NCBI GenBank assembly: GCA_037969395.1
Contig: JBBKXJ010000094.1
Coordinates: forward strand, 1 to 11,687
Reading direction: 5' to 3'
Length of the DNA stretch: 11,687 nt
From: Pseudomonadales bacterium
GTDB taxonomy: Bacteria > Pseudomonadota > Gammaproteobacteria > Pseudomonadales > JAUIET01
Shown here: in pieces, positions 739 through 11,487 of the stretch
Layout: every line of letters begins with the position of its first letter
Numbering within the stretch: position 1 is the stretch's first letter
Translations under genes and position numbers: made by a program
Notes under the pieces: model-generated
What the model saw: only the letters and a program-made list of their open reading frames with translations
Databases searched by the model: none
Told to the model about the DNA's origin: nothing

Positions 739-776
739 TATTACATGTAATAAATGTTTACATATTACATGTAATA
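739..776. promoter_or_regulatory. Twin identical 14-bp perfect palindromes (TATTACATGTAATA x2, centres 24 bp apart); candidate operator/promoter of the cluster
   Basis: 739-752 and 763-776 are both TATTACATGTAATA, and each is perfectly self-complementary. The spacer is aatgtttaca. The first copy overlaps a possible -10 (TATATT 737-742), with a weak -35-like ATCACA at 714-719. The second copy ends 16 bp before the ATG at 792. Confidence 0.45.
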
Positions 777-791
777 AGATATATTTTTACC

Positions 792-1415
792 ATGAATAAA
801 AAATCATCCGCATATTACCAGCGCGAATTCCGTAAACGACTACGCGAACAAGGGCTTGTGAAGAAGGAAGTGTGGATCCATCCCGACCACGCCAAACAGC
901 TACATGCGCTCGAAAAGCAGCTGCGCACTCGGTCGGGGCCCAAAGGCACAGATGGAGGTAATACCATGAATGACAAAATCAAAACCTGGAACACCGTGGA
1001 TTTGCACCAAGCTCTGCAGGGCTCAGAACTGTTCACTTCCGGCAGCGCAACAACAGAGCTTATCGATGGTGTAGAACCCAGCATCCACATCGTGATGCGC
1101 GAATTTGGTGATCTCCCCATTTTTCTCACCGTGGTCGGTGAGCAAATCGTCGCCGAATCGGTGCTGTGGTCGATTAACGAGGTAAAGGATGTTGCGGCAT
1201 TTAACGACACGGTATTGCGCACCCACAAATATTTCCCGCTGTCGACCATTAGCCTGGATAACGTCGGCGGCATCGACTACTACCATATGTTCGGCGCGCT
1301 CAGTGCGTCATCCATTCTGGAAAATATTGTTTTTGAAATAGAGGTGCTGGCGGCAAACGTGATTCACGCGACAGAAGCATACAGCGAATTTTTGACAATC
1401 CCCGTGGAATCCTGA
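792..1415 (+). CDS. yjfI: DUF2170 / YjfI-family protein with an extra basic 58-aa N-terminal segment (alternative internal start at 966 with a strong SD)
   Basis: The ORF is 207 aa. Residues 59-207 (MNDKIKTWNTVDL...LPIFLTVVGEQIV...FPLSTISLDNVGGIDYYHMFGALSASSILENI...) match my recollection of the E. coli YjfI / DUF2170 family (LPI..T, PLST.SL and GAL motifs). GGAGGT at 954-959 lies 7 nt before ATG 966. No SD is visible before ATG 792. The stop TGA at 1413-1415 overlaps the SD of the next gene. Confidence 0.75.
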   Translation: MNKKSSAYYQREFRKRLREQGLVKKEVWIHPDHAKQLHALEKQLRTRSGPKGTDGGNTMNDKIKTWNTVDLHQALQGSELFTSGSATTELIDGVEPSIHIVMREFGDLPIFLTVVGEQIVAESVLWSINEVKDVAAFNDTVLRTHKYFPLSTISLDNVGGIDYYHMFGALSASSILENIVFEIEVLAANVIHATEAYSEFLTIPVES

Positions 1416-1425
1416 GGAGTACAAC

Positions 1426-2127
1426 ATGAATATTTGGGCGAAAATGATCACTGCATTACGCGGTGGAGTTAACGAAGCCGGCGAAGCGATCATAGACACG
1501 CAAGCCTTGCGTATTCTGGATCAGGAGGTGCGCGATGCGGCCGAAGAGCTGAAGGCATCGAAAGACAGCCTGGCGACAATCATCGCCAGACAAAAGCTGG
1601 GCGAAGAGAAAGTGGTCAATCTCAAAGCCGAAATCGATGCGCACGAAGGCTATGCCGTAAAGGCGTTGGAAAAGAAAAACGAGGCACTGGCGCTGGAAGT
1701 GGCGGGCAAAATCGCCAACTTCGAAGCAGCGTTGCATACCGAGGAGTCCGCCACCCAGGGCTATAAGGCAAGCGCAGACAAGTTGAAGGCCGCAATCAAA
1801 CAGGCTGAGTCAAATATTCGCCGCCTGAAGCAACAGGTCGACACGGTCAAAGCCACTGAAAGCGTGCAGCGCGCGCAAGCCGCAGTGTCGGCACGCCACA
1901 GTGGCTCCAATTCAAAAATGCGAACCGCGATGGATTCGCTGGAGCGTATCAAGGAAAAGCAGGCGCTAAGCGCAGCGAAAATGAATGCCGCGGCGGAGCT
2001 TAGCGATGAGCTTGCCGAATCGTCATTGCAAACTAAACTCGAAGAGGCCGGTATCGTTGCCTCGGGCAGAAGTGCTGATGAGATTTTGGCCAAACTAAAA
2101 CAAAAGACGCAGCCGCCTGCAGAGTAG
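1426..2127 (+). CDS. yjfJ: PspA/IM30 (phage-shock protein A / Vipp1 / ESCRT-III-like) family protein, YjfJ-type paralogue
   Basis: The 233-aa protein is helical and coiled-coil throughout. The N-terminus MNIWAKMITALRGGVNEAGEAIIDTQALRILDQEVRDAAEELKASK... is typical of PspA/IM30. The block VDTVKATESVQRAQAAV resembles the YjfJ block VVKATEAMQRAQQAV as I recall it. SD GAGGAG at 1414-1419 sits 6 nt upstream of the ATG. The gene is translationally coupled to the yjfI-like gene. Confidence 0.88.
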   Translation: MNIWAKMITALRGGVNEAGEAIIDTQALRILDQEVRDAAEELKASKDSLATIIARQKLGEEKVVNLKAEIDAHEGYAVKALEKKNEALALEVAGKIANFEAALHTEESATQGYKASADKLKAAIKQAESNIRRLKQQVDTVKATESVQRAQAAVSARHSGSNSKMRTAMDSLERIKEKQALSAAKMNAAAELSDELAESSLQTKLEEAGIVASGRSADEILAKLKQKTQPPAE

Positions 2128-2203
2128 ATGCGGCAGCTTGCCTCAGCGGTTCGAATTAACCCACTCAGCGCAGGCTAAATAAAACAACAAAAGGAGGCCA
2201 GTG

Positions 2204-2905
2204 ATGTTTGCAATTCTTCTAACTGAAGGCATGGATCCTTTCTACCAGAACATCGCGTCTTTCCCAACCGCTGTTTTTACGTTGTTGCTGGCGGTGTGCG
2301 TGCTGTATTGGCTATCCGCGGTGCTGGGTCTGGTCAGTGTTGACGTGCTCGATTTTGACATACCCGAATCGGTTGGCGCGGAAGACCTGAATGCTGATAG
2401 TGGCGCGTCGGGTCCCGATGTACTGGCGGGATTAATGCTGAAATTCGGTTTGTACGGTGTGCCGGTGACCATCATCGTTTCCATTTTGTCGTTGGTCGGC
2501 TGGCTGCTCTGCTACTACCTGGTGCACTTCAGTCTTGGCTACGCTCCCGAGTGGCTGGCTGCAAGCTGGGCGCGCTATGTTATTGGCTTGCCGCTGCTGG
2601 TGGGAAGTTTATACGTTGCAGTGCTGATCACAGCGCAACTCATCAAACCCCTGCGCCCGTTGTTTCTCAAGTCAAGCCAGGAAACCGTGAAGTATGTGCT
2701 GGGGCAGACAGCCATCGTGCGCACCTCAAGGGTGGATAACGACTTCGGTGAGGCGACGCTGGATGACGGCGGTGCCGGCTTGATACTAAAAATCCGCACT
2801 GCGGGCGATGTGCGATTCGTTAAAGGCGACCGCGTTGTCGCGATAGAAAAAATTGCGGGCACGGATTATTACCGCGTGGTCTCCGAACAAGAGTTTGCCA
2901 GCTAG
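2204..2905 (+). CDS. yqiJ: YqiJ/DUF1449-type NfeD-like inner-membrane protein (N-terminal TM helices plus C-terminal OB-fold beta-barrel)
   Basis: The protein has hydrophobic TM segments (FPTAVFTLLLAVCVLYWLSAVLGLV; VPVTIIVSILSLVGWLLCYYLV; VIGLPLLVGSLYVAVLITAQLI). Its C-terminus (GQTAIVRTSRVDNDFGEATLDDGGAGLILKIRTAGDVRFVKGDRVVAIEKIAGTDYYRVV) is typical of the NfeD/YqiJ OB-fold. AAGGAGG at 2191-2197 lies 6 nt before ATG 2204. The GTG at 2201 offered by the track is too close to the SD. The gene is immediately upstream of a flotillin, as in E. coli yqiJK. Confidence 0.8.
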   Translation: MFAILLTEGMDPFYQNIASFPTAVFTLLLAVCVLYWLSAVLGLVSVDVLDFDIPESVGAEDLNADSGASGPDVLAGLMLKFGLYGVPVTIIVSILSLVGWLLCYYLVHFSLGYAPEWLAASWARYVIGLPLLVGSLYVAVLITAQLIKPLRPLFLKSSQETVKYVLGQTAIVRTSRVDNDFGEATLDDGGAGLILKIRTAGDVRFVKGDRVVAIEKIAGTDYYRVVSEQEFAS

Positions 2906-2972
2906 AGAACAGCAATCCGCACCAATACGACACTTATACCAATAGATATTACAAAAGGAAAAGGAGAGAGAA

Positions 2973-4853
2973 ATGGCTGATTTAACGGTATTAATGCCCA
3001 TTGTCACCGGGGTCGCAATATTCTTTGTGATTCTGCTAGGCCTGGCTGGCTTGTTCAAAGCCTTTTACTACAAGGTTGAACAAGGCACTGCGCTAATCGT
3101 CAACGATATGAGCGCCACGCCGAAAGTACACTTCACCGGCGCGCTGGTATACCCGATTATCTACAAAAAAGAGCTGATGAAAATTTCGCTTATCACGCTT
3201 GAGGTAGACCGGCGGGGAAAAGACGGGTTGATCTGCCTCGACAATATGCGCGCCGATATTACCGTGGCATTCTACTTGCGAGTCAACGAAACACCGGAGG
3301 ATGTGTTGAAAGTCGCCAAGTCCATTGGTGCCACAAGGGCCTCCGACAAGGAAGCCGTGCATGACCTGTTTGCCGCCAAGTTTTCCGAGGCGCTAAAAAC
3401 GGTGGGCAAGCTTATTGAATTCGTGCAGTTGTTCGAAAATCGTCAGCAATTCCGCGAGAAGATAATTCAAGTGATTGGTGAAGACCTTAACGGCTATGTG
3501 CTGGAAGATGTCGCCATAGATTACCTGGAGCAAACGCCTAAAGCCGCGCTCGATTCCAGCAATATTCTCGATGCTGAAGGTATCAAGAAAATTACCGAAT
3601 TGACCGCCGAACAGAACGTGCGCACCAATATTCTGGAGCGTGACGAACAGCTGGCGATCAAAAAGAAAGACGTAGAAACCGTGGAAGCCATGCTGGAATT
3701 GGAGCGCCAACAAGCGGACGCCGAAGCACGGCAAGAGCGGGAAGTGCTCACCATTCGGGCACGCGAGGAAGCAGAAACCAAGAAAGTTCAGGAAGAGGAA
3801 CGCTTGAAAGCGGATGCGGCAACCATTCGTGTTGACCAGGACCTTATGGTGCAGACCGAAAATCAGCAGCGCGAGATCGAAGTAGCAGGGCAGAACCGTG
3901 AGCGCGCAGTCGCCGTTGAGCAGGAGAAAGTCACGCGGGCGCGCGACCTGGAAATTGTGTCACGCGAACGCGAAGTGCAGGTGGAGCGTGTGCTCGCCGA
4001 GAAAGCCGTTGAGGTTGAGAAGAAAGAAATCGCCAATGTGATTCGCGAGCGTGTGGCGGTAGACAAAACCGTTGCTATCGAAGAAGAGCGCATCAACGAA
4101 GTGCGCGAAGTGTCGGATGCGGACCGCAAGAAACAAGTACAGGTGTTGGCCGCAGAAGCCAATGCGGAAGAGCTGAAAGTCAAGGAGGTGACTGCAGCGG
4201 CAGCAGAAGAAGCGGCGGCGAAGCACAAAGCCACCGAAATCACCACGCTTGCCGAAGCTAATCTGGAAGCGGCGGATAAGGATGCCAAGGCGCAGATCAG
4301 GCTGGCCGACGCCATGCAGGCAGAGAAAGCCGCACCTGGATTAGCCGACGCCCAGATTCAACTCGCCAAAGCCGATTCCTTGCAGAAGGAAGGCTTGGCT
4401 GAAGCGCATATCATTACTGCCAAAGGTGAGGCTGAGGGTAGCGCCGCGAAACAAATCGGCATGGCCGGTGCTGAAGTGACGCGCGAGCAGTTCAAGGCTG
4501 AAGCCGACGGCTTGGTCGACAAATTCGAAGCAATGAATTCAATGAGCAGTCAAGCGCGCGAACACGAAGAATTCCGAATGACGCTGGAGACTGCCTTCAA
4601 GGAAGCGATTGCCACCATCGAAGCCGGTAAGGAAATCGCCAAGGAAAATGCGGAAGTGCTCGCCACCGCGCTCGAGAAAGCCAAGATCGATATCGTTGGC
4701 GGCGAAGACCACTTCTTCGACAACTTCGCCAAATCCTTGTCTATCGGCAAGGCGGTCGATGGTCTGGCCAACAAGAGTGAAACCATCAGCAGACTGCTGG
4801 ATAAAGTGATGACCAAAGACGCGGGCGAGGATAAGGCTGCAAATCAGCCCTAA
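2973..4853 (+). CDS. yqiK: Flotillin-family SPFH/band-7 protein (YqiK-like): N-terminal TM anchor, SPFH domain, long Glu/Ala-rich coiled coil
   Basis: The 626-aa protein has an N-terminal TM helix (LMPIVTGVAIFFVILLGLAGLF). The SPFH region (GTALIVNDMSATPKVHFTGALVYPIIYKKELMKISLITLEVD...ICLDNMRADITVAFYLRVNE...) is followed by an EA-repeat-like coiled coil (ERQQADAEARQEREVL..., AAEANAEELKVKEVTAAAAEEAAAKHKATEI...). SD AAGGAG at 2961-2966 sits 6 nt before the ATG. Confidence 0.9.
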   Translation: MADLTVLMPIVTGVAIFFVILLGLAGLFKAFYYKVEQGTALIVNDMSATPKVHFTGALVYPIIYKKELMKISLITLEVDRRGKDGLICLDNMRADITVAFYLRVNETPEDVLKVAKSIGATRASDKEAVHDLFAAKFSEALKTVGKLIEFVQLFENRQQFREKIIQVIGEDLNGYVLEDVAIDYLEQTPKAALDSSNILDAEGIKKITELTAEQNVRTNILERDEQLAIKKKDVETVEAMLELERQQADAEARQEREVLTIRAREEAETKKVQEEERLKADAATIRVDQDLMVQTENQQREIEVAGQNRERAVAVEQEKVTRARDLEIVSREREVQVERVLAEKAVEVEKKEIANVIRERVAVDKTVAIEEERINEVREVSDADRKKQVQVLAAEANAEELKVKEVTAAAAEEAAAKHKATEITTLAEANLEAADKDAKAQIRLADAMQAEKAAPGLADAQIQLAKADSLQKEGLAEAHIITAKGEAEGSAAKQIGMAGAEVTREQFKAEADGLVDKFEAMNSMSSQAREHEEFRMTLETAFKEAIATIEAGKEIAKENAEVLATALEKAKIDIVGGEDHFFDNFAKSLSIGKAVDGLANKSETISRLLDKVMTKDAGEDKAANQP

Positions 4854-4867
4854 AACAGCGCGCTCAA

Positions 4868-4901
4868 CGCTGGCAGGCGGTTGATCCTGTCAGCGCTTTT
4901 T
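4868..4901 (+). terminator. Candidate intrinsic terminator/attenuator between the flotillin gene and the giant ATPase gene
   Basis: CGCTGGCAGG (4868-4877) pairs with CCTGTCAGCG (4886-4895) as a 10-bp GC-rich stem with one G-U wobble in RNA and an 8-nt loop. It is followed by C then TTTTT (4897-4901). It lies 15 nt after the flotillin stop and 26 nt before ATG 4927. The U-run is short (5), so termination is probably partial. Confidence 0.5.
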
Positions 4902-4926
4902 GTCATCTGGTTTATGGGAGATTGCA

Positions 4927-7900
4927 ATGGCTGAACAGCCTGGCAAAGACGCGCTTGTTGAAGCGGCCGTCGCGGAGGGTGGCGCGTACGACGTCATTAG
5001 AAAGCGCCTTGAAGAGCACGGTCGCCAGCTCGAGGAAAAGACACAACAAGTGAATGCAGCGCGTATTGCCGAAATTGGCAGTACCGATATGCAAACCGTT
5101 GCGCGTGTGAGAGTCAGAACGGAACACAACAGCGTGGCGCGCGATATCGTTCAGGTGGGCGATTATCTGCTGTTCGGTTACAACGTATTTATTGGTTTAA
5201 AAAAAGAAGTCAAAGTGGAAGATGTTTTTTCACTGTTTGCGTTAACCGAGAGCAACGGTGAATATACTATCGAAGCTGCGCCCGCCGAAGTAGATTTTTT
5301 GCAACAGCAGCGCTTCAGTTCGGATTTTCGCGAGCTGTATCAATACTACAAGCATACCCGCTTGATCCAGCTGACGGTTAATAACGGCAAGTTATTGGCC
5401 GGTTTTCAGATTGGCGAAAAACTGGAAGATATTCGTGTGTTTCGCTGGTCGGTATCTCCTGACGGTAAACAGGTTGAATATATTGATAACCGCGGCGAAC
5501 GCGACATTCAATTGCCGCCTGCCTTTGACTTCGAATGGCAAGCGGCAGGCAGGGAAGACTTTGTCAATGGGCGTCACCCGCATATCAATATTTTGGACCG
5601 TCTGTTTGTTGATACGCTGGGTGGCACTTTATCCATAAAAGTCGAGGATAACACCGAGTCCGGCCAGGGCATTTATAGTGAGCCGGTGGAAGAGCAAAAC
5701 CAGTCGCTGGATGATGTTGACGTGCAGTATGCGCTGGTTGGCGACCTTGTTCTGTTGCGCGTATTGCCGTATCGCGAGCAGCAGTGGCGGCATTTTGTGT
5801 TCAATACCAATAGTGAGCAGATTAATCGCATCGACGCGATTGGTGAATCGTGCGTTCAGCTGCCGGAAGATCACGGCATCATATTTCCTGGCGGCTATTA
5901 CTTACAAAATGGCGAATACAAGTCCTTCGATGAAGACATAGTCGGGCTGAAGTTCAAGCGCATGCTTAAATCGCCTAACGGCGAGGATGTGCTGTATATT
6001 TTTTATGAACCGGCAGATGGCGTGGTCGCGCTGCTGCCGTATAACCTGATTAATCGGAGCCTGCAAAACCCTATTATCAGTCATGGTTACGCGCTGGCGG
6101 AAGACGGCAGGCTGGTGGTATTCACCTCGGAAGAAGAGCCAACCCGGGTACATCCGATGCAGGTATGGCAAACGCCGTATACCTCGCAAGACTTTGCCGA
6201 TCGCATGCCGGTACAGCAAACTTTCTTCGGCCGCATCGGCAATTCGGCCATGGTGCGCGGTGTCTCCGATCTGTTTAGTATCGCTCGCCAGATACGCGAG
6301 CAAAATGTCTCCGTCGCACACTATGAGAAACTGGGTAAAGCGGTGGCGCGCGCCTTCGACGCCTACTACTGGTTAGACAGCCCGGAGCTTGATGATATCG
6401 ACGCAACGCTTAAAGAGGTTGCGCAAACATCAGAACTGGTCATCGACGAGTTTGAAAAAGTCGATGCGATTCGGCGTCAGTCCGCCACGGCGATGGCCGA
6501 GGCAGAGCAGGCACAACAAGCGATTATTACCGGTATAGGCACGGCCACCTGGGAAAAAGTTGCGGATTTCGTCGAGTCTCTTGATCGCGTTCGCCACCAG
6601 CGTGGCCATCTGGCAACCATCAGCGAGTACCGCTATATCGATACCAACCGTATCGCGGAGCTGGACGCGGAGCTGGTTGCAAGCGCGGATGAGCTGGGTA
6701 CAAAAACCGTCGAATTCCTGGCCGACGAGCAATCGCTGGCGCCTTATTTGCAGCAGATCGCCGAGCTGGACCAGCAAATCGAGGCGGCAAACTCGGTTGC
6801 ATTGTTAAAGCCGTTGATTGAAACCATGGATGCGATTGCCCGCGGCCTGGATTTACTGTCGGAGTTAATGGCGACGCTTAAAGTCGATGACGCCACGGTA
6901 AGAACCCGTATCATTGACGCCATCTCTGCGGTTTACGCCAAGCTGAATCAAACCCGGGCCAGTGCGAAACATCGGCAGGCAAATCTTGGCTCGGCCGAAG
7001 CGGTTGCGCAATTCTCCGCCCAGTTCAAACTGTTTTCACAAAGTATTAACAACGCGCTCGGCTTGGCCACTGATCCGGACCGCTGCGAGGAGCAGCTGTC
7101 GCGACTGTTGGTGCAGCTGGAAGAACTCGAAAGCCAGTTTGGCGAGCACGAACAATTCCTCGCCGATATCATTGAGAAGCGTGAGGAAATCTATGACACC
7201 TTCGAGTCGCACAAACAAACGCTGATTGAGCAGCAACAGCGCAAGGTGCAAGTGCTGGTCGATGCAGCCCAGCGGATGTTAGGCAGCATTGAAAAGCGCA
7301 GCAATAAATTTACCGCAGCGGATGATCTGAATACCTATTTCGCCGCTGATGCGTTGGTGCTGAAGATCAAGGAGCTAACCCAGCAACTCGGGCAACTCGG
7401 CGGCAATGTGCAGGCCGATGATATTGGCTCGCGCTTCAAAATGATCAAGGACCAGGCCTTGCGCTCGCTGCGCGACAAAAGCGATATCTTTATCGAGGGC
7501 GGCAAGGTCATCAAGCTCGGTCCCAGGCATCGCTTCAGTGTCAACACCGATGAACTCGATCTATCCATCGTGCCGTATCAGGAGGGGCTGGCCGTGCATT
7601 TGGCCGGCACGCAATACTTCGAAGCCATTAACCATCCAGACCTGCTGGCGCTAAAAGACTACTGGAACCTGTCGCTGGAGTCGGAGAGCGACGTCGTCTA
7701 CCGCGCCGAATACCTGGCCTTTCAATTTATTCAAGCGCTGCGTGCCAACGATGCCGGTGTGGATCAGGCAGACGTTGAAAACGCCCTGCAGTCCGAGCAG
7801 CAAATGTATGACCTGGTTCGCGCCTTCGCTACCCCCCGCTACAAAGAGGGTTACGAAAAAGGTATTCACGACTACGACGCAGCCAAATTACTGATGGCGT

Positions 7901-10185
7901 TATTACCCTTGCTGAACACCGCCGGGTTGCTGACCTATCTACCTCGGCAGCGCGCCCTTGCCCAGGTATTCTGGGTGGCGTTCAGTAGTGCTACAGAGAA
8001 CAAGGCCAGGGTGGAAAGCTGGCCGCAACGCGCGGCATCGGCTTATGCTATGCGCGAACTATTGCACAGCTCAGCCAGCATTTCCCTGGTGGAGAACGAA
8101 GTTGTACAGGCGATAACGCAATTCAACGAACAACATGCTTTGGTGAGTAGTGAGCTGGATTTGCAGCAAGCGGCTGTTTATCTGGTTGGCGAACTGCAGC
8201 AAGGCACAGCGGAATTTGTCACCACCCAATACGCCACACAGTTGCTCGATATGTATCGACTCGCCCTGGATGAGCACACGATAGCAGAGCATCAGCGATC
8301 ACTGCGCAACTTACAGGGCAACTATGTGCAGCAGTGGCGACTCAGCGAGGCTTGGTTAGAAGCGCTGTTGAATAAAGAGGAGAAAGAAGGCAAAAACCTA
8401 GAGCTGGTGAATGTCTTAAGGCATTACGTTCCCGAGGCCGTTGCTGTGCTGAATCTCGGCGAGGCAATAGTGCGTCGCCACGCAGACATAAAACTACACC
8501 TTACGGTGGACAATCTAATGGGCGCGCATGCGCGCATTCAGAACCGCAGCATTTTGCTTGCCGTGGATACTTTCATGCAGCGCCTGCGCCAGCATGTGCA
8601 AATTGTTGTGCCTGCTTACCAGCACTACCTGCGGCTCAAGCATGAGATTGCCAACCACGAACGCGAGGCCTTGCGGCTTGAGTCGTTCAAAGCGCAACCA
8701 TTAAGCTCTTTCGTTAGAAACAAGCTTATCGATCAGGCGTATCTGCCGATCATCGGCGATAATCTCGCCAAGCAAATCGGCACGGTTGGCGACAGCAAGC
8801 GTACCGATCTCATGGGCTTGCTGATGATGATCTCGCCACCCGGATACGGCAAGACAACACTAATGGAATACGTGGCGAACCGACTTGGTCTGATCTTTAT
8901 GAAGATCAACTGTCCGGCGCTGGGCCACAACGTGCTGTCGCTGGACCCCGAGCAGGCACCCAATGCGACCGCGCGGCAGGAACTGCAGAAGCTCAACCTT
9001 GGGTTGGAGATGGGCAATAACGTGATGTTGTATCTGGATGATATACAGCATACCAATGCCGAATTTCTGCAAAAGTTTATCTCCCTGTGCGACGCCACCC
9101 GGCGTATCGAAGGGGTGTGGCGCGACAAGGCAAAAACCTACGATATGCGCGGCCGGCGGTTTTGCGTTGTTATGGCCGGTAACCCGTACACCGAATCGGG
9201 CGAAGCGTTCAAGGTGCCGGATATGCTGGCCAACCGTGCGGACATTTATAACCTTGGCGACATCCTCGGCGGCATGGATGAGCAGTTCGCGCTTAGCTAT
9301 ATAGAAAACAGCTTGACCTCGAACGCCGTATTGGCGCCGCTGGCGGTACGCGAAATGGGTGATGTGTACAAGCTGGTGGATATGGCCAAGGGTTTAAATG
9401 TACCCACAACCGACCTCAGCCACTCCTACAGCAGCGCCGAAATCAATGAGATTACCGGTGTGTTGAAAAAACTGTTTGTGATTCAGGACGTAGTGCTAAA
9501 AATCAATCAGCAATATATTGCGTCTGCCGCCCAGGACGATAAGTACCGGGTAGAGCCAGCATTTTTGCTGCAAGGTAGCTACCGTAATATGAATAAAATG
9601 GCGGAGAAAGTCTCTGCCGTGATGAACGATGCAGAGCTGGCGCAATTGATAGACGACCACTACCAGGGCGAAGCTCAGTTGCTGACCTCGGGTGCCGAAG
9701 GTAATTTGCTCAAGCTGGCCGAACTCAGAGACGAACTGAGCGAGCAGCAGGCAGCGCGTTGGCAGCAGATAAAAACTGATTTTCTGCGCAATAAGGCTAT
9801 GGGTGGTGATTCTGATGACATTGGCGGCAAGATCAACGCGCAGCTTGCCGATCTCGTGCAAAGCGTTCAGGCTCTGAATGTTAATCGAGACGGCGCGGCA
9901 GGGGAGGCGGCAAACCAATCGAACGCGGCACTAGCTACCAGTATCGAAAAGCTGCTGTCAGGCTTGCAGGAAGCACGACCGAAAATCGAAGTCATCAATC
10001 AACCGGTGCCGGAAATGGCCGCCGTGCTTTCCGTGTTGAACGAAACCATCGACAACACGTTGTTTCCTATTTTGCGCGCGATGGATAAAAAGATCGACAT
10101 AGACCTGCGCACGCAGGAGAAAATGCATTCTATATCCGAGCAGTTGCGAGTCTTGCAAAGTAAAATAGATCCCGGCGATATTTAG
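4927..10185 (+). CDS. Giant 1752-aa multidomain protein with one MoxR/AAA_5-type AAA+ ATPase module (aa ~1290-1480) set between a beta-rich N-terminal region, a long helical region and a helical C-terminal tail; likely the type often auto-annotated as 'DNA repair ATPase'
   Basis: The ORF is uninterrupted from 4900 (TTG) to the TAG at 10183-10185. ATG 4927 is the preferred start, with GGGAG at 4915-4919 at 7-nt spacing. Walker A is ISPPGYGKTT (nt 8842-8859). Walker B is MLYLDDIQH (DD at 9037-9042). Sensor-1 is VVMAGNPYTE (9175-9186). The arginine-finger-like motif DMLANRADIY matches the MoxR/RavA/McrB/dynein-type AAA_5 signature (xxQNP ... LLDRF). No VWA/MIDAS motif, nuclease motif or second AAA module is seen. 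The N-terminal ~460 aa are beta-rich (repeated G..L..G/DG-type turns). About 800 aa are predicted helical or coiled-coil. Confidence 0.88.
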   Translation: MAEQPGKDALVEAAVAEGGAYDVIRKRLEEHGRQLEEKTQQVNAARIAEIGSTDMQTVARVRVRTEHNSVARDIVQVGDYLLFGYNVFIGLKKEVKVEDVFSLFALTESNGEYTIEAAPAEVDFLQQQRFSSDFRELYQYYKHTRLIQLTVNNGKLLAGFQIGEKLEDIRVFRWSVSPDGKQVEYIDNRGERDIQLPPAFDFEWQAAGREDFVNGRHPHINILDRLFVDTLGGTLSIKVEDNTESGQGIYSEPVEEQNQSLDDVDVQYALVGDLVLLRVLPYREQQWRHFVFNTNSEQINRIDAIGESCVQLPEDHGIIFPGGYYLQNGEYKSFDEDIVGLKFKRMLKSPNGEDVLYIFYEPADGVVALLPYNLINRSLQNPIISHGYALAEDGRLVVFTSEEEPTRVHPMQVWQTPYTSQDFADRMPVQQTFFGRIGNSAMVRGVSDLFSIARQIREQNVSVAHYEKLGKAVARAFDAYYWLDSPELDDIDATLKEVAQTSELVIDEFEKVDAIRRQSATAMAEAEQAQQAIITGIGTATWEKVADFVESLDRVRHQRGHLATISEYRYIDTNRIAELDAELVASADELGTKTVEFLADEQSLAPYLQQIAELDQQIEAANSVALLKPLIETMDAIARGLDLLSELMATLKVDDATVRTRIIDAISAVYAKLNQTRASAKHRQANLGSAEAVAQFSAQFKLFSQSINNALGLATDPDRCEEQLSRLLVQLEELESQFGEHEQFLADIIEKREEIYDTFESHKQTLIEQQQRKVQVLVDAAQRMLGSIEKRSNKFTAADDLNTYFAADALVLKIKELTQQLGQLGGNVQADDIGSRFKMIKDQALRSLRDKSDIFIEGGKVIKLGPRHRFSVNTDELDLSIVPYQEGLAVHLAGTQYFEAINHPDLLALKDYWNLSLESESDVVYRAEYLAFQFIQALRANDAGVDQADVENALQSEQQMYDLVRAFATPRYKEGYEKGIHDYDAAKLLMALLPLLNTAGLLTYLPRQRALAQVFWVAFSSATENKARVESWPQRAASAYAMRELLHSSASISLVENEVVQAITQFNEQHALVSSELDLQQAAVYLVGELQQGTAEFVTTQYATQLLDMYRLALDEHTIAEHQRSLRNLQGNYVQQWRLSEAWLEALLNKEEKEGKNLELVNVLRHYVPEAVAVLNLGEAIVRRHADIKLHLTVDNLMGAHARIQNRSILLAVDTFMQRLRQHVQIVVPAYQHYLRLKHEIANHEREALRLESFKAQPLSSFVRNKLIDQAYLPIIGDNLAKQIGTVGDSKRTDLMGLLMMISPPGYGKTTLMEYVANRLGLIFMKINCPALGHNVLSLDPEQAPNATARQELQKLNLGLEMGNNVMLYLDDIQHTNAEFLQKFISLCDATRRIEGVWRDKAKTYDMRGRRFCVVMAGNPYTESGEAFKVPDMLANRADIYNLGDILGGMDEQFALSYIENSLTSNAVLAPLAVREMGDVYKLVDMAKGLNVPTTDLSHSYSSAEINEITGVLKKLFVIQDVVLKINQQYIASAAQDDKYRVEPAFLLQGSYRNMNKMAEKVSAVMNDAELAQLIDDHYQGEAQLLTSGAEGNLLKLAELRDELSEQQAARWQQIKTDFLRNKAMGGDSDDIGGKINAQLADLVQSVQALNVNRDGAAGEAANQSNAALATSIEKLLSGLQEARPKIEVINQPVPEMAAVLSVLNETIDNTLFPILRAMDKKIDIDLRTQEKMHSISEQLRVLQSKIDPGDI

Positions 10186-10233: not shown

Positions 10234-11301
10234 CTACGCTAGTGAATACCATGTACCACGCCCAGCACCATGCCGTGCAATAAACCCATTTTCCTGCAGA
10301 GTTTTCATGTGGTCTTTGATCGTGTTTCGACTTTTTCCTGTTGCTGCTACAGCGTCGCTAATTGTGACCCTGCTGTGTTCACGGGCAATTTCCAGAATTT
10401 GAACTGACAGCTGCGGCAAATCGCCGAAAATCAGGCGTTCACGTTCTATTTTTACTGCAAGTTTTTCTTTTTGCGTGGTCAGTGACAGGAGGAAGTAAGT
10501 TACCCACGGTTGCCAATCAGGAGAATCGGTTCGAATAGTAGCTTGTGTTCGGCGTAGTGCCAGATAGTAGGATTCTTTGCCTTGCTCAATCACGCTTTCC
10601 AATGAGCTATAGGGCACAAAGACATAACCGGCTTTCAGCAGTAGCAGCGTGGTCAATATGCGCGATAGCCTTCCATTGCCGTCCTGAAACGGATGGATCT
10701 CTAAAAAGACAACAGTGAAAATAGCGGTAATGAGCAGCGGGTGCGGGTGCTTTTCAGAGTGGGCTTTATTTGTCCATGCGATCAGTTCGTCCATTAAGCG
10801 CGGCGTATCAAAAGGCGTTGCGGTTTCAAAAATCACGCCGATGCTTTTTCCGTCTGGTGAAAAAGCCTCAACGCTATTGGATAGTGTCTTGTATTGCCCG
10901 CGATGTCGTGAATCTTTGTCAGAATGTTGCAATAGCTCAGCATGGAGTTGTTTGATGAAATTTTTCGTCAGTGGTATGTTCTGCCAGTGCTCGATCACCG
11001 TTTCCATCGCGGCGGCATAACCAGCCACTTCCTGCTCGTCCCGACTTTCAAAAGATTGAATTTCCAGGTTTGATAACAGTTTTTCAATGTCGCGATTTGA
11101 GAGCTTTGCGCCCTCTATTCGAGTGGAAGAACCAATGCTTTCAATTGTTGCAACATGCCGCAAGTTGGACAGACGCTCCGGCGCAATTCGCCCAATAGCC
11201 TGCCAAGCGCCCTTGAATTGATCCAGTTCGGAGATGAGCGACAATGTATGATGAGTGATTGCAAGCGTTTCAATATTCACTTCTGCATTAGCATATGACA
11301 T
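10234..11301 (-). CDS. Fic-family (AMPylator-type) protein, class II with an N-terminal inhibitory helix motif, and a C-terminal winged-HTH-like tail
   Basis: The catalytic Fic motif HPFQDGNGRLSR is encoded at 10660-10695 (revcomp reads CAT CCG TTT CAG GAC GGC AAT GGA AGG CTA TCG CGC). The (S/T)xxxE(G/N) inhibitory motif STRIEG is encoded at 11110-11127. ATG at 11301 is the preferred start. The track uses an upstream in-frame TTG at 11313. The gene is convergent with the giant ATPase gene, leaving a 48-bp gap. Confidence 0.88.
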   Translation of the reverse strand: MSYANAEVNIETLAITHHTLSLISELDQFKGAWQAIGRIAPERLSNLRHVATIESIGSSTRIEGAKLSNRDIEKLLSNLEIQSFESRDEQEVAGYAAAMETVIEHWQNIPLTKNFIKQLHAELLQHSDKDSRHRGQYKTLSNSVEAFSPDGKSIGVIFETATPFDTPRLMDELIAWTNKAHSEKHPHPLLITAIFTVVFLEIHPFQDGNGRLSRILTTLLLLKAGYVFVPYSSLESVIEQGKESYYLALRRTQATIRTDSPDWQPWVTYFLLSLTTQKEKLAVKIERERLIFGDLPQLSVQILEIAREHSRVTISDAVAATGKSRNTIKDHMKTLQENGFIARHGAGRGTWYSLA

Positions 11302-11487
11302 GCTGATATCCAATTAGCCATCCATTCTCATCCGTTTAATGATGGCATGACAATACCCGATTGTCCACCCGTTTCCATCCAATTAAACCGAGTCGAAAAA
11401 CGCAGATCGGAACAGCTTTCAATGGGCATGATCTGTTTATTCACTTTGAAACGAAAACCATGGCCTGTCTCTGGCTGTGTTGTTGCA

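Follow-up and report, generated by a model that had tools for sequence, protein, structure and literature searches.

The gene at positions 792–1415 of the 11,687-nt stretch of Pseudomonadales DNA analysed here (the window) raises the question of where its protein begins and what its first residues do. The product is a YjfI/DUF2170 homologue whose core starts at Met59 (ATG 966), and the frame stays open for a further 58 codons, up to ATG 792. An initial annotation proposed three readings of the additional segment: a fused DNA-binding domain through which the protein autoregulates its gene cluster, two isoforms produced from alternative starts, or an over-extended ORF call. We therefore compared the locus with its orthologues, from the protein and its operon to the promoter, the putative operators and the internal start.

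The ORF (792..1415, + strand) encodes 207 aa. It scored 312.5 bits on the NCBIfam equivalog NF050185 ("biofilm formation regulator BacA"), for which the cutoff is 300, and aligned end to end (aa 1–202 versus profile positions 1–203 of 206), and the 58-aa segment alone aligned to positions 1–49 with 82 bits. Since this match lies above the cutoff, the gene is assigned by sequence as the orthologue of Pseudomonas aeruginosa BacA (PA3732/PA14_16140), the first gene of bacABCDE. The crystallised chain (PDB 8q8o) matched aa 63–201 (E 1.8e-40). A genome-wide search with patterns from the DUF2170 core alone (THKYFPLS, DYYHMFG) recovered 80 loci, including Cellvibrionaceae, Oleiphilaceae, Hahella, Oleispira, Cellvibrio and others, all of which aligned from query position 1. 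The pair bacA–bacB was collinear in 80/80 loci, and the order bacA–bacB–C–D–E was maintained as far as contigs extended. The 234-aa and 626-aa proteins of the operon had no family match in Pfam, PADLOC gave no defence-system match beyond noise for the operon proteins, and no match emerged when the whole window was compared by megablast with E. coli genomes and with plasmids. A gene at the end of the bac operon and convergent with it (10234–11313, − strand) encodes a Fic-domain protein with a C-terminal winged helix, which matched the PADLOC SoFic model with 173 bits. The features discussed below are listed in Table 1.

Table 1 Coordinates of bacA, its predicted control elements and the remainder of the operon within the window.
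Feature	Position	Strand	Basis
Distal operator (predicted), palindrome TATTACATGTAATA (core TTACATGTAA at 741–750), abutting the upstream side of the -35	739..752	.	Equivalent in orthologous loci
-35 hexamer TTTACA of the bacA promoter	757..762	+	Promoter scan (10 of 12), 17-nt spacer
Proximal operator (predicted), palindrome TATTACATGTAATA (core at 765–774), filling the -35/-10 spacer	763..776	.	Register in orthologous loci
-10 hexamer TATATT, ending 6 nt before ATG 792	780..785	+	Promoter scan
Long-isoform start codon and predicted transcription start	792..794	+	Promoter geometry; PA14 transcription start in the orthologue
N-terminal basic alpha-beta-alpha domain (aa 1–46), predicted operator-binding head	792..929	+	Conservation, NF050185, hhalign
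Hypervariable, predicted-disordered linker (aa 47–62)	930..977	+	pLDDT < 50; 13% aa identity
Internal Shine–Dalgarno GGAGG, 7 nt before ATG 966	954..958	+	GGAG at -12 in 72/79 distinct orthologues
Short isoform ORF (predicted), 149 aa, Met59 to stop, DUF2170/CesT-like chaperone domain only	966..1415	+	Start conservation; 8q8o; 16-kDa annotation
DUF2170 domain (aa 65–201)	984..1394	+	Pfam PF09938, 176.8 bits (gathering score 27); AlphaFold confident throughout
bacB, PspA/IM30 homologue, likely partner of the DUF2170 domain	1426..2127	+	Pfam PF04012; collinear in 80/80
Rest of operon: 234-aa, 626-aa and 1761-aa (DUF3686 + AAA ATPase) proteins	2201..10185	+	Pfam; collinearity

The additional N-terminal segment behaved as coding sequence in every locus. 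The head (aa 1–46) was in frame with the DUF2170 core in 80/80 loci, although the linker that joins them differed in length by 15 codons and placed the internal Met anywhere from residue 56 to 71. In the ortholog alignment the head was the best-conserved portion of the protein, with a mean pairwise identity of 76% (aa 5–45) compared to 67.5% for the core, and its invariant residues were S6, Y9, Q10, R11, R14, R16, L17, R18, G21, K24, E26, W28, P31, L37, E41 and R45. Identities at the three codon positions were 0.76/0.86/0.44 in the head, a pattern that indicates purifying selection on the protein, compared to 0.35/0.36/0.35 in the linker (13% aa identity). The comparison across loci thus confirms the extension as a real, translated protein domain. 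The ORF, its sequence and the count of 12 Lys/Arg in the first 46 residues given in the initial annotation were all reproduced (the last by direct count), and its third option, an over-extended ORF call, is refuted by the open frame in 80/80 loci. Rather than starting uniformly at the equivalent of Met59 behind a drifting upstream stretch, the orthologues kept the extension and its basic residues in 80 loci. A split gene in which head and DUF2170 form separate ORFs (L228) was discounted as a likely frameshift, its contig being named 3x (taken as low coverage) and its other genes being fragmented; P0135 ends at a contig edge.

ATG 792 lacks an SD-like tetramer, as the initial annotation had noted, and the likely reason, which it had not considered, is a leaderless transcript. 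Because the -10 hexamer ends so close to the start codon, the bacA mRNA is predicted to begin at the A of ATG 792, and there would be no leader in which a Shine–Dalgarno (SD) sequence could lie. This arrangement was conserved. A sigma70-like -10 ending 5–8 nt before the long-form ATG was present at 76/81 loci, compared to 3.3% of random positions, with TTGACA-like -35 hexamers at the same register, whilst just 7/81 loci had an SD-like tetramer before this ATG. In P. aeruginosa PA14, differential RNA-seq by Wurtzel et al. (PMC3460626, supplementary file 4) places the transcription start at 1374599 and the annotated start at 1374776, with a listed 5' UTR of 177 nt. In the P. aeruginosa locus of our set (L084), the distance from the long-form ATG to the internal ATG is exactly 177 nt, and anchoring on the upstream gene equates position 3001 with 1374599 and 3178 with 1374776. 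As spacing and anchoring coincide, the start mapped in PA14 is, by sequence correspondence, the A of the long-form AUG. It lies 7 nt past a TAGTGT -10 that is paired with a -35 of TTGAAA, a sigma70-type arrangement. The RpoN promoter proposed for PA3732 in 2008 (L084 2940–3003) fits neither the mapped start nor these -35/-10 boxes.

The twin palindromes that had been reported at 739–776, just 5' of ATG 792, were found, and proved perfect and unique in the window. Each copy of TATTACATGTAATA is a perfect 14-nt palindrome, the second ending 15 nt before ATG 792, and the core TTACATGTAA (≤1 mismatch) occurs at only these two places in the 11.7-kb window, where 0.22 would be expected by chance. 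One to four TTACATGTAA(T)-like palindromes were present just 5' of the long-form ATG in 80/80 loci, and at least two in 77/80. Counted with up to one mismatch, TTACATGTAA had 183 sites in the 80 × 110 nt (8.8 kb) of upstream sequence compared to 14 in the remaining 1.37 Mb. The register was also fixed: the centre of the proximal site was 20–24 nt from the ATG in 73/80 loci, and one copy lay within the -35/-10 spacer and one directly upstream of the -35, with a centre-to-centre distance of 21–24 bp. In P. aeruginosa (L084), the region reads ATTACATGTGA-gctg-TTGAAA-tc-TTACATGTGA-cctcg-TAGTGT-gagtcc-ATG. On sequence grounds, this fixed register of putative operator and promoter is the classic geometry of repression. 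Just 5' of the palindromes in the window is a 40-nt tandem direct repeat (642–681 and 682–721, 83% identical, core CATCTATAGTTTTAraAAGC), which is conserved in L085 and L086, two relatives that are 96% identical, and could be the site of a second regulator or an UP-like element.

An AlphaFold model from a 99-sequence alignment had a helix at residues 6–19, a low-confidence segment at 23–28, a second helix at 31–46, a disordered linker at 47–62 and a confident core. The helix–strand–helix layout predicted in the initial annotation therefore stands, segment 23–28 being uncertain, but its likening to ribbon-helix-helix (RHH) modules does not: the order is alpha-beta-alpha rather than beta-alpha-alpha, and no Pfam RHH family matched the head even at E values up to 10. 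A head-profile search of 1.84 billion representative proteins returned just 158 relatives, namely BacA/YjfI fusions and standalone proteins of 44–60 aa located in phage-like gene arrays. The standalone heads gave sub-threshold matches to PF11455 ("MazE-like antitoxin"), NF041430 ("plasmid repression protein F") and phrog_536 ("transcriptional regulator"). In three such loci (L091, L092 and L094), the standalone heads of 46–54 aa are encoded within arrays of small genes on one strand, as is typical of phage early regions, and one is close to a Phage_P1_Gp16 gene. The window head itself scored 14.5 bits against Pfam PF11455 (E 0.036, profile positions 6–29 only), below the 22-bit threshold. In profile–profile comparison with hhalign, the head-family profile (A5) matched a profile of bona fide PF11455 proteins (A7) at 95.7% (E 9.9e-9, 37 columns), from helix 1 through the strand into the first part of helix 2, and A4 matched A7 at 67%. 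By these profile comparisons, the head shares homology with the MazE-like antitoxins of PF11455 (formerly DUF3018) over their N-terminal half. In type II systems, the N-terminal halves of antitoxins are the DNA-binding parts. When the head, the A5 profile and PF11455 members were searched against PDB sequences, all matches were insignificant (eL19, uL30 and the KorA C-terminus, E 0.12), and we regard the similarity to the KorA C-terminal dimerisation segment purely as a lead.

The same palindrome recurred with this domain in other gene contexts. In L090 and on Pseudomonas megaplasmids, a head-bearing YjfI is the first gene product of polyamine-type operons (yjfIJKLMC), and these operons have TTACATGTAA sites or TTAC-NN-GTAA variants upstream; no TTACATGTAA site was found upstream of the head-less E. 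coli yjfI. Twelve PF11455 plasmid loci chosen by protein similarity (L215–L226) had GTTACATGTAAC, GTTGCATGTAAC or GTTGCATGCAAC upstream in 12/12 cases. Site variants (central CG, TT or GA; GTTGCATGCAAC) occurred where the head sequence diverges. PF11455 genes (those of L215–L226 together with L095, L096, L130 and L162) come from Alpha-, Beta- and Gammaproteobacteria and Mycobacterium, and nearly all have a GTTACATGTAAC-type palindrome 23–60 nt before the start, including the variants GTTGCATGTAAC, GTTGCATGCAAC and TATCATGTAAC; a family-wide PF11455 operator was not described in the literature searched.

A metagenome scan that used DNA only (TTACATGTAA-N11-14-TTACATGTAA) returned 120 loci (L095–L214). 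The domain adjoined the sites in 17/120, comprising 13 bacA genes and 4 PF11455–PemK/MazF modules, and in these 17 the domain gene begins 9–62 nt past the sites. About 100 of the 120 had no BacA or PF11455 gene nearby, and formed a heterogeneous group of chance or AT-rich-looking matches and tandem arrays, so that in such a large collection the twin site alone is not diagnostic. L180, L183 and L195 contain tandem site arrays with a 21–23-nt period and an iteron-like look. The strongest argument that the head reads this palindrome is thus that domain and site occur together in three mutually unrelated settings, namely bac operons, yjf polyamine operons and MazEF-type modules, and from this co-occurrence we infer the recognition. 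The proposal of a fused, autoregulating DNA-binding domain is consequently strongly supported as a prediction of binding, on the basis of domain conservation, promoter-overlapping operators in every orthologue, PF11455 homology and the published derepression of bacB–F.

The GGAGG that the initial annotation placed 7 nt before ATG 966 is present and, across 79 distinct genes, AGGAG-N8-ATG was the sole conserved motif in an otherwise random linker. GGAG occurred 72 times at -12, the next commonest position having 18 occurrences. The codon four positions before the internal Met was GGA in 72/79 genes, whereas at other places in these genes GGA makes up 12% of Gly codons; the base after the codon was G in 77/79 and that before it A in 64/79. 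The internal start was ATG in 73 and GTG in 4 genes (77/79), at a fixed 8-nt spacing. The glycine was followed by V, E, A, G or D, residues encoded by codons with only a first-position G in common. The motif was also kept where the encoded peptide is different, as in TTGGAGcggtttATG (LERFM) of the Pseudomonas megaplasmids and GAGAAGGAGGAAGACATG (KEEDM) of P. aeruginosa, and gggaggg/tggagg was present in distant homologues. As the motif persists where the peptide differs, selection here acts on the DNA and not the protein, and the motif is best read as a conserved ribosome-binding site. A second, head-less isoform is therefore probably made from ATG 966, and the suggestion of alternative starts gains support from this DNA-level conservation. 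In two Methylococcales/Crenotrichaceae orthologues (L031 and L056), the internal GGAG/ATG was absent (linkers ELINTM and ELIDTT) and no DUF3686–AAA gene was detected in the locus; this lineage may have lost the short isoform.

By its predicted start, the short product corresponds to E. coli YjfI, to the annotated PA3732 of 16 kDa and to the crystallised chain 8Q8O. PA3732 has been cited as being targeted directly by RsmA, at sites around "its" SD. We take this to be the internal SD, because the annotated start of PA3732 is the internal ATG.

Against a second product, it could be argued that only the long protein is made and that AGGAG-N8-ATG binds CsrA/RsmA, makes ribosomes pause or is a relic, left over from the ancestral yjfI start after its fusion to an upstream regulator. 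The ancestral origin is plausible because the start of E. coli YjfI (MTWNP...) corresponds to it in position, and the internal GGAG could in principle serve as a CsrA/RsmA site alone, given that PA3732 is reported to be an RsmA target with several GGA sites around this SD. A relic, however, would have decayed in a linker randomised to ~0.35 identity per codon position, and yet GGA (72/79), ATG/GTG (77/79) and the spacing are retained and the motif outlasts changes in the encoded residues. Moreover, RsmA normally occludes a functional SD, so that its binding would itself imply a start there. For these reasons, we consider a long-only gene rather unlikely. The opposite reading, in which Met59 is the true start, following the original PAO1/PA14 annotation, and 792–965 is a 5' untranslated leader, is hardly credible. 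The original 16-kDa P. aeruginosa annotation, the crystallised construct, the 177-nt 5' UTR listed by Wurtzel et al. and the missing SD at ATG 792 would fit it, but an untranslated leader would not hold its frame in register across 80/80 loci despite the variation in linker length, or combine 76% aa identity with third positions near saturation. Nor would it have a transcription start exactly at the ATG (P. aeruginosa), homologues among standalone proteins and PF11455 antitoxins, and an NCBIfam BacA model of 206 positions that includes it.

It is also conceivable, but quite improbable, that the head is real and does not bind the palindrome, being instead a dimerisation, RNA-binding or membrane-binding module, and that another regulator uses the TTACATGTAA sites. 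The weak similarities to the KorA C-terminal dimerisation segment and to ribosomal proteins, together with the many metagenome twin palindromes that have no domain nearby, would be compatible with this. The accompaniment of the domain by the palindrome in bac, yjf polyamine and MazEF-type contexts argues against it, as do the site variants that track head divergence and the lack of a site at the head-less E. coli yjfI. The general DNA-binding role of type II antitoxin N-terminal halves points in the same direction.

We therefore favour, as the likely reading, a bacA that encodes two in-frame products, namely a long repressor translated from a leaderless mRNA and a head-less, chaperone-like short form. 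As the first gene of a PspA-type membrane-stress operon, bacA would give a long product (207 aa) from an mRNA that begins with the A of ATG 792, and in this product a flexible linker would connect the 46-residue basic alpha-beta-alpha head to the DUF2170 (CesT-like) dimer domain. Head dimers would occupy the two TTACATGTAA palindromes, one upstream of the -35 and one in the -35/-10 spacer. RNA polymerase would thus be blocked, and BacA would in this way repress its own operon, bacABCDE. The short product (149 aa), initiated at ATG 966 behind a canonical GGAGG, would act as a head-less chaperone-like partner of BacB. Binding of BacB to the DUF2170 domain may tune repression, by analogy with toxin–antitoxin and PspA/PspF circuits, and mixing of short and long subunits may do likewise, the short form possibly diluting the long.

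The published P. aeruginosa bacA mutant is reportedly an insertion mutant, so that up-regulation of the downstream genes could be partly polar read-through. In that mutant, BacB–F were up 6- to 13.5-fold. The same body of work concerned a short, 16-kDa, DUF2170-only protein and proposed regulation via protein–protein contacts; a BacA–BacB complex was predicted (p = 0.981) and an interaction was reported as unpublished data. The biofilm, rhamnolipid and swarming phenotypes of BacA come from work in P. aeruginosa only. More tentatively, and with considerable doubt, the locus may be a self-contained stress switch. A scarce leaderless long form would repress, whilst the abundant SD-driven short form and BacB would titrate it via the DUF2170 domain. 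The short form would possibly be under CsrA/RsmA control and the long:short:BacB ratio would set induction. Toxin–antitoxin-style conditional repression would thus have been re-used for a PspA/ESCRT-III-type membrane system, and PF11455 heads would represent a DNA-binding fold that had so far gone unrecognised and whose GTTACATGTAAC site is nearly universal.

The BacA family and its regulatory phenotype are already known, and the RefSeq model spans the long form. What is offered here is a concrete and testable mechanism for the negative control of the bac operon, a biofilm/virulence locus of P. aeruginosa, by BacA, together with a correction, since the gene model behind the crystal structure and the mutant work lacks the regulatory head. 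For a family widespread in Gammaproteobacteria and in two PspA-linked operon types, the analysis specifies an operator and a promoter, along with a leaderless start and a second isoform that are both probable, and the PF11455/standalone phage–plasmid module gains a putative recognition site and an evolutionary link. The components (an autorepressor, a leaderless mRNA and an internal start) are all of known kinds, which makes this a mechanistic advance rather than a new principle.

Among known systems, the closest is P. aeruginosa BacA itself, an orthologue that is likewise first in the same operon, is followed by a PspA homologue, and shares the promoter/operator layout and the internal SD/ATG. 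It differs in its published gene model, which is the short form without the head (8Q8O and the mutant work); the literature searched made no mention of a DNA-binding head, of an antitoxin ancestry for it, or of operators, a leaderless start, a conserved internal start or dual isoforms. With the PF11455 antitoxins, BacA has in common a homologous helix/GL/strand/helix module, a GTTACATGTAAC palindrome in its own promoter and an autoregulatory layout. However, BacA has neither a PemK/MazF toxin partner, the next gene encoding a PspA homologue, nor the toxin-neutralising C-terminal tail, the place of which behind the head is taken by a fused CesT-like chaperone domain (DUF2170). Most BacA promoters are also predicted to be leaderless, whereas the antitoxin genes have SD leaders.

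E. coli YjfI (yjfIJKLMC) shares the DUF2170 core and a neighbouring PspA-family gene, and its start (MTWNP) corresponds to the internal Met59, but it lacks both the head and an upstream TTACATGTAA. On the Pseudomonas megaplasmid pQBR103 (L082, 5947–12126), the first gene of a yjfIJKLMC-type polyamine operon encodes a YjfI with the head, and behind this operon come homologues of two proteins of the window, those of 234 aa and 626 aa (SPFH-annotated); as judged by homology, parts of the two PspA-linked operon types lie here side by side.

By analogy, the proposed circuit resembles PspA–PspF feedback and the partner switching of ExsC in type III secretion, where an effector or client is linked, by binding to a regulator, to transcription of the operon that encodes it. 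The cited authors on BacA also read it by coupling of the PspA–PspF or ExsC type. In contrast to both, BacA would be a sigma70 repressor with its own chaperone domain, with no sigma54 activator or anti-anti-activator cascade. Two further parallels concern proteins unrelated to BacA. In Tn5 Tnp/Inh, initiation at an in-frame internal codon yields a protein without the N-terminal DNA-binding part that can mix with the full-length form, a precedent by which antagonism between short and long BacA may be conceived purely as a hypothesis, and in phage lambda the cI repressor made from PRM is translated from a leaderless mRNA, as is predicted here for the long form of BacA.
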